Below, one piece after another: positions 1,856 through 6,398 of a stretch of DNA of 64,000 nucleotides. The stretch is from Nitrosopumilaceae archaeon (lineage in GTDB: Archaea > Thermoproteota > Nitrososphaeria > Nitrososphaerales > Nitrosopumilaceae): NCBI GenBank assembly GCA_965214835.1, contig CBDCCK010000002.1:960001-1024000 (forward strand). The letters are read 5' to 3'. The translations under genes were made by a program, and so were the position numbers. Every line of letters begins with the position of its first letter. The first letter of the stretch is position 1. The notes under the pieces were generated by a model. That model saw nothing but the letters and a program-made list of their open reading frames with translations, searched no databases and had not been told where the DNA came from.

Positions 1856-2953
1856 TATACTGATGATCATTGAAAATTTCGCCTGATTACACGCTGCGCT
1901 CAAGATACTTGTAGATGTCAACCTTGATGGAACACGTCCTAAAGTATTCCGAGACGGCCCTTTTGAGGTGATCTACCGTCTCGTAAAATGCCGATGTAAC
2001 CAGCCTGTACTTGGCATCCTTCCAGACTGCCTCTATGACGCTCAGCTCCGGCCTAGCTACTGGCAGGTACAGCAAGACAACGTCGGGATTTTTCTTTAGG
2101 TATCTGCGGACCTTTCCGGTCCTGTGCTGTGCTGCGTTGTCCATCACAATCAGAACCTTTCCCCACTTTTTGTGCGCCTGCTTGAGATAATGCACAAAGT
2201 TTGCACTGTTGAACTTGTCGTACGTGCGCATCAGCCGGGTTCCGTCGTCTGCAATCGTTCCGTATACCACGACGTGCTCCCTTCTGCCGGATCGTTGCAC
2301 CTCGATCCTGTCCCCCACTGGCGACCAGAACTTTCTGCCGTCCCTTCCCGTACTGACGAATATCGATTCGTCCTGTACGGTTATCCTAAATCCGCGCCTT
2401 TTTGCAAGCTTAATCGCGGTTCTTGCCGCCCCCTGCCACCGTCTTACCGCCTTTGCGTCGGCAGCATCTGCCAGCTTGGTGGTTGACGTCTTTAGCGAGA
2501 ATCCCATCGTGCGCAGGATTCTTCTGATGCTTCCCACGCTGTATGTGACATGCAGCCTGCGGCGCACCCAGTTGCACAGCTTCTTCGGGGTGAGCTTTTC
2601 CATCCTGCGCAACTTTGTGGCGATCTTTTTTATCCTGCTGACTGGAACCTTTGGCTTTCTGCCCCTGTCAGGGGAGTCACGGAGGCCGTCGATGCCGTCA
2701 AGCTCGAATCTATTGATCCACATCTGTACTGTACGCTGTGTCACGTCGGCAATCTCCGCGGTATGTGCGGTGGTGTTGCCAAGCAGCACGGAGCGCACCG
2801 CCATGATTCTGGTATAAACTCTGTTATCCTTTTCGACACACATGGCATCCGTGAGGGTTTTCTTCTTGTTCATGTCAGGATGGCCATGGATGGAGATCTA
2901 TAAACCTTCACAAGGCGTGCAATCAGGCGAAATTTTCAATGATCATCAGTATA
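1856..2953 (-). mobile_element. IS630-family element, copy 1 (apparently intact)
   Basis: Perfect TIR TATACTGATGATCATTGAAAATTTCGCCTGATT at both ends including the flanking TA; CTAG target. Confidence 0.92.
1887..2873 (-). CDS. IS630 transposase
   Basis: HTH N-terminus; DDE motifs QDES, MDNAAQH and PELSVIEAVW. Confidence 0.92.
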   Translation of the reverse strand: MNKKKTLTDAMCVEKDNRVYTRIMAVRSVLLGNTTAHTAEIADVTQRTVQMWINRFELDGIDGLRDSPDRGRKPKVPVSRIKKIATKLRRMEKLTPKKLCNWVRRRLHVTYSVGSIRRILRTMGFSLKTSTTKLADAADAKAVRRWQGAARTAIKLAKRRGFRITVQDESIFVSTGRDGRKFWSPVGDRIEVQRSGRREHVVVYGTIADDGTRLMRTYDKFNSANFVHYLKQAHKKWGKVLIVMDNAAQHRTGKVRRYLKKNPDVVLLYLPVARPELSVIEAVWKDAKYRLVTSAFYETVDHLKRAVSEYFRTCSIKVDIYKYLERSV

Positions 2954-3027
2954 GTCAACAGGGGGACGTAACCTCCCATATCAAACGGTGCTGATTCCCT
3001 GCACGGGCCACTGCGAGTGTGCGTTTT

Positions 3028-4123
3028 TCAGTCAGACGCATTCACTAGGCATTCCATCGCTTTATACTTTCTCTGCGTGAGCTCCTTGTTCTGCGTGCGG
3101 TATTCCGTTTCATTGGTCAGCATGTGCCAGATCACCTTTGCAAGCGTTCTGGCCACGGCCACCTTGGCCTTTTGCCTTCCCCTGCGCTTGGCTATTCTAC
3201 TGTACCTTTCACCCATCCTGCTATCGTGCTGCACCGCTACGGTAGCTGCGTTGACAATGGCGTATCGCAGCCATGCAGAGCCGGTCTTGGTTATTGATCC
3301 TCCCCGTACGGTCTCGCCGCTGTTGCGGTGTGACGATATCAGGCCCGCGTATGATGCAAGCTTTTCTGCGGTGGGAAATCTTTGTATGTCTACTATTTCA
3401 GATATTATGGCAAGTGCGATCACGTGGCTTATTCCGGGAACCGTCATCAGGAGCTTGGTTCTGGGATCGTCTCTGCAGATGGTTGCAATCTTGCGCTCAA
3501 ATCCTGCTGCCTGCTGCTGCGTCACTTCAATCCTGTCCAGTCCCGTGCCTATCATCATTTTATCCATCTCCGAGATGTCAGTCCCCGTCGTCCCTGCAGA
3601 GCTCATGCATCCATTGGATTCCCTGTACGGTAAACTTGCCCTTGGTGGGCGGCCTTGCCACATACTTTGCAAGTATTGCAGTTATCTTGTTCTTTTCGGC
3701 TGTTCCCAGGCGTACTGCGTCGATCCTGGCCCTTGAGAGGCCGCGCAGGTCCCTATAGTACCTGTCAGGCACGAACGACTCGTACACCATGTCCATCCTG
3801 AGCAGATCTGCCAGTACCTCCGAGTCTACTTTATCATCCTTTAGCCTTGCCTGCGCTATGGCCCGGGTCTTGGCAGGATGCGCCAGCAGTGTGTCTATTT
3901 GCTTATCCTCAAGCATGTCATGCAGCAGGATCCAGTAGTTCCCCGTTGCCTCACAGACTGCACGGATCTCGTGTCCTGCATATTTCTCGTTGATCCGTCC
4001 GACAAATTTTCTTATTCCGTCGGCCGTGTTGGAAAACTCCGTCTGTTCCAGAATCTTTGCAGTATCGTCCTTGATGGTTGCTACGCACGTCTTTTTATGA
4101 ACGTCTATTCCGATGTTGATCAT
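3028..4123 (-). pseudogene. IS110 recombinase, frameshifted near 3590
   Basis: The DEDD RuvC domain (IGIDVHK, CEATGNYW, KDDKVDSEVLA) is in one frame; TVPGIS...LASYAGL...NSGE...ITKTGS is in another. Confidence 0.9.
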
Positions 4124-4129
4124 TGTATC

Positions 4130-4290
4130 ACCTCCTTGTTGATCAAAGTGTGTGTGCCCAACTGAACGGAAAACTCCCATTCGCCCTCGATGTGGCATTT
4201 TGTTGTCCGCCTACTCTGAGCCAGTCTCATACACGCCCTCATACGTGGCAAGGTTACTTCGGCTCTTGGGCCCAACATGGAATATATGGC
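4130..4290 (-). ncRNA. Putative IS110 bridge RNA (target loop about 4218-4265, donor loop about 4166-4210)
   Basis: Two stem/internal-loop/hairpin modules share a UGCCAC..GAGGGCG hairpin. Loop segments match the target and donor sequences. RNA ends are approximate. Confidence 0.75.
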
Positions 4291-4334
4291 ATCCGCTACA
4301 GATAAGATTTGATATAACGTCTCATACAATACTT

Positions 4335-4831
4335 TAGTAGAAAAGGTCTTGAATGGCTTAATGATTCACTAGAGGATAACAAAGTTAAAACGGCAAAAAT
4401 TCTTGCAGCTAACAACAGAAAGCGGCCCAAATTAATTAACCGCCTAAGGAAGTAACAGCTCGGGCTCTGGAAGTTCAGGCATGAATTTTATCGCCAAAGG
4501 GATCTTCGCAGATGTAATTTGTGTCTAAAATCATAAATCACTTCCAGAGCCCGAGCTGGTACCTAAGGAATCATTTCAAGAAATTTAGAAGTGAAAACAA
4601 AGAAAAAGGAATTTTATGTGAATTAAGAGTGATAATTGATGGCAAACTAGCTTCTAACATTCACGATAGGTGGATAATTACAAAAACACCACCTTCAATG
4701 TACCTTCTACCGATGTTATCGCACGCGGACAATATTCAGAAATAAAAAGAGATGCCAATCGGCCTGATTTTGAATCATGGTGGAACCGATCAGTAGACAT
4801 TTTGGATAAATATAATGAAATCAGTAGATGA
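4335..4831 (+). pseudogene. AT-rich gene remnant with an HDRW (PLD-like nuclease) motif
   Basis: After removing the MITE and restoring one A it reads ...IHDRWIITKNTTFNVPS...GQYSEI...FESWW. The 5' end is missing. Confidence 0.45.
4452..4562. mobile_element. MITE family C (IS66-type ends)
   Basis: 22-bp TIR GTAACAGCTCGGGCTCTGGAAG with one mismatch; 8-bp TSD CTAAGGAA. Confidence 0.9.
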
Positions 4832-4982: not shown

Positions 4983-6398
4983 TTGATTGTGGCAGGGACA
5001 AAGTATGTCGTCAATGACATTGTCAGAAAAGACAGCAGGGACCTGTCCAAATTCATCAAGCCGGAAAGCGTTGCCCTGACAGTCACCTCCCCCCCGTACA
5101 GGAACGCAATCAACTACTCCCAGCATGTCAGGAATGCAGGGAGCAGGCAGGATGCCAGATTCCGGGGTGATGTGGGCCTGACCACTCGCGAATACCTCGA
5201 CGAGATGGAGCAAATCTTCTCGGAGGTCTACAAGGTGACGATTCCGGGTGGTTTCTGCTGCATAGTAATTGGCGACGAGGTAGATAACGGGAGGCTGGTC
5301 CCCCTCCCGAGCCACCTGATCTCACGGCTGGTAAAGGAGGCAGGCAGCGATGACGGATGGAGGCTGAGAGACGTCATAGTGTGGAACAAAGTGACTGCAG
5401 GCAGAAACGGGGCAGGAAACAGGTTTGGAATTTTCATCCAGAACCCGCTGCCCAGCTACTATAGGAGCAACATCATGCACGAGTACATCATTGTGCTCGA
5501 AAAGGGCCCGCAGAGGCGCGAGATTGACAAGCCAAGTACAAAGAAAATCCCCCTCAACAGGGCGATGAAAAGACAGGTCTCACTGTCTGTCTGGGACCTG
5601 CCCGTAGAGGAGGCAGTAAAATCCGAGTCAGGAAAATCAGTATGGGATATCACGCCCGTTCCGCCCAGGGTAATTGACCATCCGGCGGTGTTTCCCGAAC
5701 AGATTCCATGGAGGCTGATCAGCCTTTATTCAAGGGAGGGAGACGTGGTCCTGGATCCCATGAACGGCAGCGGGCAGACGACCAAGGTGGCACATCATCT
5801 CAACCGGGGTTTTATCGGCGTTGACAAAAGACTGCCTTATGTCAGACTGGCCAAAAAGCGCCTCGGGGAGCCATTCATGCTGTCAAACTTTATGATCCCA
5901 GTCTACCTGCCAATCAGCTGGTCTGACAGCGAGGAGTCTGGCAAGAAGGAGGACGCCCACCTGGACATTTCCGGGGTTCCAAGGGGATTCAAGTTCGTTT
6001 TCTCAAAGCAGTATGCAAGGGAGGTCCTGGGGGTGCGGGGAAACTATCTGTATTACAAAAACAAGGATGGCAGATGGATCTGCTACATAATGGCAAGGAG
6101 CAGCCGGCCAACAAGAATCAACATGGGGAGCCTCGCAGATCCAAAATCCCCGTTGAGTGTGGTACTGAACGCGATACCGGCCAAGCGCTTCCACAGGGCC
6201 CAGCTGAGTGAGATGCTGCCTCCAAGACTGGTGGAAAACAGACAGCCGATTGGGGCAGTCATTGACGTCTTGGAGCATGAGGGATTCCTAAAAAATACAG
6301 GCGGGAAGGGGGCAGGCCAGGTCTATGAGCTGGCCGTCCCCGGAAAACACAAGACCGCCCTCTCTCAAGCAAAGCCCGCAAAAAGGAAAAAGCGATGA
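4983..6398 (+). CDS. Beta-class amino DNA methyltransferase (probably N4-C) with C-terminal extension
   Basis: VTSPPY precedes HPAVFP and VLDPMNGSGQT; about 170 extra C-terminal residues. Confidence 0.88.
   Translation: MIVAGTKYVVNDIVRKDSRDLSKFIKPESVALTVTSPPYRNAINYSQHVRNAGSRQDARFRGDVGLTTREYLDEMEQIFSEVYKVTIPGGFCCIVIGDEVDNGRLVPLPSHLISRLVKEAGSDDGWRLRDVIVWNKVTAGRNGAGNRFGIFIQNPLPSYYRSNIMHEYIIVLEKGPQRREIDKPSTKKIPLNRAMKRQVSLSVWDLPVEEAVKSESGKSVWDITPVPPRVIDHPAVFPEQIPWRLISLYSREGDVVLDPMNGSGQTTKVAHHLNRGFIGVDKRLPYVRLAKKRLGEPFMLSNFMIPVYLPISWSDSEESGKKEDAHLDISGVPRGFKFVFSKQYAREVLGVRGNYLYYKNKDGRWICYIMARSSRPTRINMGSLADPKSPLSVVLNAIPAKRFHRAQLSEMLPPRLVENRQPIGAVIDVLEHEGFLKNTGGKGAGQVYELAVPGKHKTALSQAKPAKRKKR

Follow-up and report, generated by a model that had tools for sequence, protein, structure and literature searches.

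Our analysis of 64,000 nucleotides of DNA from a Nitrosopumilaceae archaeon (contig CBDCCK010000002.1, positions 960,001 to 1,024,000; this whole stretch is called the window hereafter) indicates that positions 2975-4320 are very probably a copy of an RNA-guided insertion sequence (IS) of the IS110/IS1111 family, residing in a thaumarchaeal (Nitrososphaeria) genome. The archaeal origin of the host agrees with its small subunit (SSU) rRNA, which scores 1452.6 bits with the archaeal model versus 1089.2 with the bacterial model. The putative guide RNA appears to be bispecific, with a first loop that tracks the strands of the target and a second loop that tracks the element's own ends. The original prediction, made from the letters of the DNA alone, had proposed an archaeal IS110-type element with a bispecific guide and a CT core, and the covarying structure, the covariation of the loops and the empty sites described below all argue in its favor.

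Architecture of the element and its predicted guide RNA

The recombinase gene lies on the minus strand and starts with an ATG at 4123-4121, preceded by a ribosome-binding site, GGAGGTG, at 4135-4129. It codes for a DEDD domain followed by a Transposase_20 domain, the order by which the IS110 family is recognized, and in the window copy the two domains are in two frames. The features of the insertion are the following.

2975..4320, minus strand: insertion sequence proper, 1346 bp, IS110/IS1111 family
2973..2974, plus strand: left copy of the core dinucleotide CT (AG on the recombinase strand); the core is present twice in the filled site and once in the empty one
4321..4322, plus strand: right copy of the core dinucleotide CT
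2968..2972, plus strand: left target half-site GTAAC, within the terminal-repeat tip of another element and equal to the 5'-side strand of RNA loop 1
4323..4328, plus strand: right target half-site CATACA
2975..3027, minus strand: short non-coding end 3' of the recombinase gene, 53 nt, with terminus ...TTTGATAT-GGG
4124..4320, minus strand: long non-coding end 5' of the gene (197 nt), containing the predicted guide RNA gene
2978..2985, no strand: subterminal inverted repeat, arm at the 3' end of the gene (ATATCAAA on the plus strand), 3 nt off the element end
4308..4315, no strand: subterminal inverted repeat, arm at the 5' end of the gene, 5 nt off the element end (7 nt with the core)
3581..4123, minus strand: N-terminal RuvC-like DEDD domain of the recombinase (PF01548, E = 1e-28)
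3031..3579, minus strand (half-gene 3672-3031): C-terminal part of the recombinase, Transposase_20 (PF02371, E = 1.2e-24), in another frame than the N-terminal part
3578..3582, minus strand: 2-nt deletion relative to the intact sister copy, giving a frameshift and a premature TGA at 3578-3580

The element ends were defined by homology between subfamilies, which on the recombinase strand starts right after the core, at AG-ACG(T/C)TATAT, and stops at ...ATATGGG-AG. Written on the same strand, the ends are AGACGTT-ATATCAAA ... TTTGATAT-GGG. In subfamily 1 the 7 nt beyond each end are also alike between copies, a likeness explained by the repetitive nature of the target. Across homologues the subterminal repeats measure 8-13 bp, and both of their arms change in step while their spacing is constant. 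A single core is seen in the empty site, one flanks the inserted element at either end, and the core recurs in the guides. The boundaries proposed earlier are borne out by a sister copy in the same genome (G000:C2:311696-313057), which is 90% identical to the window copy, has an uninterrupted recombinase frame of 365 aa (gene at 311759-312853) and sits in a site that reads GTAAG-AG-[element]-AG-TTTACCCCTCAGG. They are also borne out by uninterrupted sites, since the sequence GTAAACTC[A/T]TAC was found at 67 places in the genome, each time at the extreme end of one of several repeated elements and bordered by unique DNA.

The repeat tips at these 67 places are of the type GTAAGAGTTTACCCC, and a second type of tip, GTATG[T/A]GGT[C/T]AC, occurs 155 times in the genome, where 26 sites differ by at most one mismatch from the 13-nt target of the window copy. 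The element prefers as its targets the outermost 12-13 bp of terminal repeats belonging to other transposons, and such repeats are found in very large numbers in this genome. Because the uninterrupted sites are tips of repeated elements, the element inserts within the terminal repeats of these transposons, 5-7 bp from the tip. Among contigs of four DNA runs from one study that cover 2500-4800, none bridged the empty site of the window insertion; these contigs are short and broken at repeats, and several diverge at 4327, the end of the shared target sequence.

The RNA would be encoded on the same strand as the gene; a closing stem encloses two modules, and in each of them an outer stem leads to a large internal loop and then to a hairpin. 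On the minus strand module 1 reads GAGCCG / AA-GUAACCU / UGCC(ACGUAUGAG)GGCG / UGUAUGAG-AC / UGGCUC, and module 2, at approximately 4165-4211, repeats the UGCCAC..GAGGGCG hairpin. Its parts in the window are these.

4154..4277, minus strand: conserved 124-nt RNA core with closing stem and two loop modules (covariance model R1, 126.7 bits)
4251..4257, minus strand: 5'-side guide of the target loop, GUAACCU, complementary to the downstream flank and core as read on the recombinase-sense strand
4224..4233, minus strand: 3'-side guide of the target loop, UGUAUGAG and then AC, identical to the upstream flank and core
4198..4205, minus strand: 5'-side strand of the donor loop, CAACAAAA, which through its AAC is complementary to GTT, nt 3-5 of the element start ACGTTA
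4174..4181, minus strand: 3'-side guide of the donor loop, AAUGGGAG, identical to the last bases of the element and the core (..ATGGG-AG)

Recombinase relatives at E <= 1e-40 are present in 41 of 301 genomes sampled from the class, the host genome counted, and 50 loci were retrieved for comparison. Five helices were proposed, namely the closing stem and, for each module, an outer stem and a hairpin. In an alignment made from sequence only, of the 124-nt core of the window and 21 homologues from the host and related genomes (22 sequences), 87.8% of the pair cells were paired, compared with 32.1-45.9% when the partners were slid by 1-3 columns; both sides changed in a compensatory manner in 14 of the 28 pairs, and the covariation score was reached by none of 500 shuffles. 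The alignment of 40 matches fitted to the model gave 91.7% of cells paired and 19 of 28 pairs with compensatory changes. An independent RNAalifold run recovered the outer stem and the hairpin of each module, four of the five helices in all, and missed the closing stem, which MAFFT had misregistered. Three G-U pairs are invariant or nearly so (22/22, 21/22 and 20/21 sequences) and would fit only a transcript of the recombinase strand. Model R1 has 40-41 matches among the retrieved loci and 13 in the host genome, and misses the most distant homologues (L046-L050, L055, L058, L072-L079); in six of the homologues missed by R1, matches to the 5' flank identified by eye reach 7/8, 7/8 and 7/8 and runs of 7, 8 and 10 nt. 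A search of Rfam (E <= 10) returned no family for the guide RNA, the only hit being a chance snoRNA match outside the element.

The correspondence between the loops and the DNA is direct in the window copy. Plus-strand positions 4251-4257 read AGGTTAC, so that the RNA strand GUAACCU equals the left flank and core, GTAAC-CT (2968-2974), while plus-strand positions 4226-4233 read CTCATACA, which is identical to the core and right flank (4321-4328) and hence complementary to the RNA. The AC that follows the 3'-side guide matches the first 2 nt of the element, in a handshake-like manner. In the donor loop, the 3' guide AAUGGGAG is the complement of CT-CCCAT (2973-2979), and in homologues this strand equals the last bases of the element and the core in three variants, GGGAG, GGAAG and GGATG. 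The 5' strand of the donor loop makes the shorter match listed above, which in the sister copy is AACG to CGTT (nt 2-5). The core is found in three of the four guide strands and is missing from the 5' strand of the donor loop.

These matches agree with what had been claimed for the window. All the strings and coordinates that had been quoted are present, module 1 on the minus strand included; the left loop strand does equal GTAACCT and the right strand (4226-4233) is complementary to the core and right flank, and the hairpin repeated in the second module and its complementarity to the donor end (2973-2979) were found again. The left donor guide, which had been described as a poor match, is a short match of 3-6 nt that is set back from the core and covaries with the element end. 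The suspicion that a CT core read opposite to the gene strand implies a geometry unlike that of IS621 also held, as the order of the guides is swapped relative to a real IS621 copy.

In total, 15 guide nucleotides of the window copy match its own flanks. Its guides GUAACCU / UGUAUGAG face flanks GTAAC-CT-CATACA, and the guides GUAAACU / CGUAAGAG of the sister copy face GTAAA-CT-CTTACG, with scores of 8/8 and 7/8 in each copy. This pair of copies in one genome is a natural reprogramming, in which the guides differ exactly where the targets differ.

Covariation of loops with targets and element ends

To guard against circularity, the element ends used for the comparison of independent insertions were located without loop 1. 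The 3' end was taken as the recurrence of the donor-loop 3' strand beside the partner of the subterminal repeat, and the 5' end was set from that repeat; end-finding by the longest inverted repeat gave spurious repeats in many loci and was replaced by this constrained finder. Preset filters (repeat of at least 6/8, length of 1250-1900 and plausible spacing) kept 27 of the 41 model matches, corresponding to 25 unique insertions, and the 14 excluded matches were fragments, deletion derivatives or loci without a located end.

The upstream (5') flank and core scored 165/200 against the loop-1 3' strand (permuted mean 89.7, maximum 122), the downstream (3') flank scored 148/200 against the complement of the loop-1 5' strand (permuted mean 99.8, maximum 123), and the first 6 nt of the element scored 101/150 against the complement of the donor-loop 5' strand (permuted mean 63.7, maximum 83). 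In all three comparisons the observed score was reached in none of 20,000 permutations, and the same was obtained without the locus of genome G282 (159/192, 145/192 and 96/144; again 0/20,000). The two handshake-like nucleotides of the target loop matched the first 2 nt of the element in 41/50 positions versus 32.7 in permutations (5/20,000), and the equivalent signal of the donor loop was weak (25/50 versus 19.4; 594/20,000). A covariance model of homologues together with guide-target covariation had been put forward among the tests of the idea, and both a conserved fold and covariation were found.

Several observations weigh against this interpretation. The score of the 3' flank is the best of three registers, with an identical rule in the permutations, and the match of the donor-loop 3' strand is no independent test, because this strand served to locate the ends. 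The fit is imperfect: the 5' flank reaches at least 7/8 in 18 of the 25 insertions, and the 3' flank reaches at least 7/8 in only 10 and at least 6/8 in 17. Four loci (L063, L045, L005 and L006) match poorly at both flanks, although in L006 the boundary was probably mis-set by the end-finding procedure, and at the 3' flank the match is poor in L037 and L039. Among ten left junctions of subfamily 1 in the host genome that kept their guides, the flank equals the own guide in four, is off by one in four and off by two in two, a pattern that action in trans or tolerance of mismatches would give. The 5' strand of the donor loop does not pair with the core, unlike that of IS621. Regarding the structure, the 40-match alignment leans toward the model to which it was fitted, and the minimum free energy (MFE) fold of the 199 nt at 4124-4322 as a single sequence is no more stable than those of shuffled sequences (z = 0.28). 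Finally, the gene of the window copy is frameshifted.

It could be argued that the conserved structure is a mere leader or regulatory element of the recombinase mRNA, with the protein alone picking the target and the matches between loops and flanks being incidental. The location of the structure directly upstream of the ribosome-binding site and ATG, as well as its unremarkable single-sequence fold, would suit such a role. However, a leader has no reason to carry flank sequences, both strands of loop 1 covary with 25 widely differing targets (0/20,000), and copies that are 90% identical differ at exactly the guide positions where their targets differ, so that we consider this explanation very improbable. 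It is likewise highly unlikely, in our view, that the guide-like segments act as DNA, either by pairing with or mimicking the target at synapsis or as flanks that were copied in at integration. Comparison of sequences cannot by itself separate the DNA function from the RNA function of one and the same stretch, but the G-U pairs in the stems of the recombinase strand would be A-C mismatches on the other strand, which are poor in DNA hairpins, and the helices are maintained by compensatory changes, as in RNAs. Moreover, according to the available text of two reports, the RNA of homologous bacterial elements was purified with the enzyme and was needed in trans (PMC11208160; PMC11187229).

Proposed mechanism and comparison with known systems

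If an RNA does guide the element, then by analogy with IS621 and the seekRNA elements it would excise as a circle in which the two ends are joined across the core, with a predicted junction of ...TTTGATATGGG-AG-ACGTTATATCAAA... on the recombinase strand. The RNA would be bound by a tetramer of the DEDD/serine recombinase, one loop holding the circle junction and the other the matching genomic site, and strand exchange would take place at the core. As for the promoter, we can offer guesses only: a TATA-like TTATAT close to where the element starts, or TTTGATAT, which belongs to the opposite end and would come to lie beside the start in the circle.

Because of the 2-nt deletion, the window copy cannot encode a working recombinase. 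Its SG motif reads GLISSHRNSG, with S instead of the motif proline, whereas the intact sister copy has AGLVPSHRNSG (GL-P----SG). The window copy was probably moved by the enzyme of the sister copy acting in trans, with the use of its own guide RNA. A copy at 1.65 Mb, 99-100% identical to the window copy (100% over 649 nt and 98.6% over 726 nt), has the same 2-nt deletion, yet sits at another repeat-tip target whose flanks fit the shared guides. Because this copy with the same deletion lies at a different target, a move after the frameshift with an enzyme provided in trans seems likely, and the most economical explanation is at least one move of the broken element, gene conversion being the alternative.

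It is possible, though on the whole unlikely, that the family works as described and the window copy is a dead relic, immobile since its gene broke and with an RNA that is no longer used. The 2-nt deletion, the premature stop and the replaced motif proline would favor this view, as would the fact that only one of the three near-full-length copies is intact and that 13 RNA-model matches stand against three near-full-length elements. On the other hand, the near-identical copy at 1.65 Mb, with the same deletion at a different target that fits the guides, speaks for at least one later move or for gene conversion, and the guides, the subterminal repeats and both ends of the window copy are intact.

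One of the closest described systems is IS621 with its bridge RNA (Durrant et al. 2024, PMC11208160; Hiraizumi et al. 2024, PMC11208158). Both elements have a DEDD and Transposase_20 recombinase and an RNA in the long non-coding end 5' of the gene (here 197 nt upstream, with 53 nt downstream); both RNAs devote one internal loop to the target and a second to the joined ends of the element; each loop has one strand per DNA strand, overlapping at a 2-nt core that is CT in the frame of the guides; and two extra positions match the other partner after exchange, as handshake guides do. The IS621 geometry used here was taken from an annotated copy between yaaX and yaaA, a spacer that lacks the insertion in most E. 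coli, and it agrees with that report (PMC11208160). In this real copy the 5'-side guide ATCGGGCCT repeats ATCAGGC-CT of the upstream flank (8/9), the 3'-side guide TGCGTAG complements the downstream flank, CT-ACG.., and the donor-loop 5' strand ACAGTATC equals the last bases of the element plus C. The archaeal loops have 5' strands that complement the sense strand, in loop 1 that of the downstream flank and in the donor loop that of the element start; their 3' strands have the same letters as the upstream flank (loop 1) and the element end (donor loop). The 5'/3' order of left and right guides is therefore swapped in both loops, which puts the gene and the RNA on the strand opposite to the CT reading; when the archaeal element is read on the opposite DNA strand it maps one-to-one on IS621, with CT as the core and the handshake-like bases included.

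The two elements differ in other respects. The recombinases share only 26.5% amino acid identity, and matches in the Protein Data Bank (PDB) cover only C-terminal residues 201-337 of the archaeal protein. The IS621-like group has subterminal repeats of 2-3 bp, in contrast to the 8-13 bp of the archaeal element, whose RNA also has an extra closing stem around both modules and a donor-loop 5' strand that stops short of the core. Since the host is an archaeon, the sigma-70 junction promoter of IS621 is not applicable here.

In its ends the archaeal element rather resembles the IS1111 group. According to the available text of Siddiquee et al. 2024 (PMC11187229), IS1111 elements are defined by subterminal inverted repeats with 7-nt and 3-nt extensions, the repeats measuring 7-17 bp (also PMC11208160), and the order of guides is reversed between seekRNAs of IS1111 type and IS110 type. 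Like the IS1111 seekRNA elements ISEc11, ISKpn4 and ISPa11, the archaeal element has a 7-nt extension at the gene start (core counted) and one of 3 nt on the other side, as well as a segment complementary to the top strand located 5' of the one complementary to the bottom strand, if the top strand of that paper is the strand of the transposase gene. It also shares the GL-P----SG motif, in the intact sister copy. The difference lies in the long non-coding region and RNA, which are upstream rather than downstream of the gene; IS1111-type elements with an upstream RNA are described as a rare exception, e.g. ISMtsp17 (PMC11187229). By these features the element is IS1111-like in its ends and guide order and IS110-like in the position of its RNA.

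The choice of target has a bacterial parallel as well. IS4321 and IS5075 insert likewise in Tn21 ends, as stated in the title of a reference in PMC11208160, and like the archaeal element they are site-specific, inserting a few bases within a terminal repeat that belongs to another transposon. Their hosts and targets are different, those in the present genome being tips of small non-autonomous elements and other archaeal repeats.

Members of the same family have been described in archaea, such as ISHvo9 and ISHvo10 (PMC11187229), and 662 archaeal recombinases of the IS110 family have been reported (bioRxiv 10.1101/2024.06.21.599552). Bridge RNAs were predicted for 85.7% of IS110 and 93.0% of IS1111 elements of ISfinder (Durrant et al., PMC11208160), and 32,190 such RNAs, archaeal genomes included, were scored with 86 models (bioRxiv 10.64898/2026.10.21.760802). 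The literature searched names no thaumarchaeal guide-RNA element, but its supplementary lists may contain this clade or architecture. The mechanism itself is already known and large surveys have modeled tens of thousands of such RNAs, archaeal ones among them, so that for a specialist the present element would be a modest surprise.

A broader reading would make this a distinct archaeal lineage, with IS1111-type ends and guide order, an upstream RNA and an archaeal TATA/BRE promoter possibly completed at the circle junction, in which one intact gene serves about a dozen guide-RNA genes, mostly carried by truncated or broken copies with different guides, and orphan RNAs, acting as a library, retarget the enzyme in trans and rearrange transposon ends. 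We regard this as doubtful and rather improbable as a whole. The RNA-guided recombinases of this family are under development as programmable tools for genome writing, with work mostly on a few bacterial elements, and the window provides a well-delimited archaeal example for which the same genome supplies an intact enzyme gene, the RNA has a covariance model, the donor and target sequences are defined and there are natural examples of retargeting. To our knowledge, ammonia-oxidizing archaea are without genetic tools, and for that reason a native programmable recombinase may be a reasonable starting point for them. The element also shows that an upstream or downstream location of the RNA can be dissociated from the order of the guides, which bears on the divergence of IS110 and IS1111.

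Related copies and neighboring features

The host genome contains 29-30 BLAST pieces related to the element, comprising three near-full-length copies, internally deleted derivatives, many 5' fragments and a second subfamily with 71-75% identity; the recombinase gene is intact in one of the three near-full-length copies. The guide-RNA genes (13 model matches) are mostly on truncated copies, either 5' fragments of approximately 90-570 nt or internal deletion derivatives, and three of the 13 adjoin a near-full-length recombinase gene, one of these genes being intact. In several fragments the left edge still has the 7-nt target sequence, even in places where other DNA adjoins them, and because of this retention, rearrangements mediated by the recombinase are suggested. 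In locus L031 (positions 1243-1464, genome G203) the 5' part of the element is in a tandem duplicate, with the second element directly after the DNA for the 3'-side target guide of the partial first copy; such a tandem would be expected if guide-coding DNA itself forms half of a target site.

The recombinase gene of the 1.65 Mb copy is interrupted by a 93-bp miniature element (G000:C2:1651218-1651310) with terminal repeats GTATGTGGTCACGTCCCC and an 8-bp duplication, GATAACTG, whose tips are of the type targeted by the IS110-type element. At least two further groups of IS110-family recombinases are present in the genome in multiple copies, with 30-36% identity to the recombinase of the window (for instance at G000:C2 1941176-1942217, 2129002-2130043, 2178365-2179406, 2578980-2580039 and 2950545-2951586), and model R1 detects no RNA beside their genes in the host genome.

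Outside the host, a scan of named genomes found a single close relative, with 83% amino acid identity, in a metagenome-assembled genome (MAG) of Nitrosopumilus sp. The best plasmid-borne relatives of the recombinase are haloarchaeal and rhizobial, at 35-38% identity (36-38% for the haloarchaeal ones), and the element ends were not resolved in one haloarchaeal and one rhizobial relative. A subfamily in loci L035, L036, L038, L039, L042 and L051 has a much longer 3' non-coding end, for an element of 1609-1860 bp, and carries a conserved GC-rich hairpin, GGGGGCGTTTCGCCGCCCC...GGGGCGGCTCAACGCCCC.

Within the window, an IS630-like element (1855-2954) lies 18 bp from the IS110-type element and has an open reading frame (ORF) for a 328-aa transposase at 1887-2873 on the minus strand; about 20 near-full-length copies of it, with 90-99% identity, are found in the genome, one of them just upstream of the window. 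On the other side, a 19-bp inverted repeat, CAGCTCGGGCTCTGGAAGT ... ACTTCCAGAGCCCGAGCTG, surrounds approximately 75 bp at 4440-4565. Contig depth at 4425-4501 is very high in all four DNA runs, and for this reason the repeat is probably another small repeated element. Further along, at 4983-6398 on the plus strand, is an ORF of 471 aa with a TSPPY motif, which we take to be typical of N4/N6 DNA methyltransferases.

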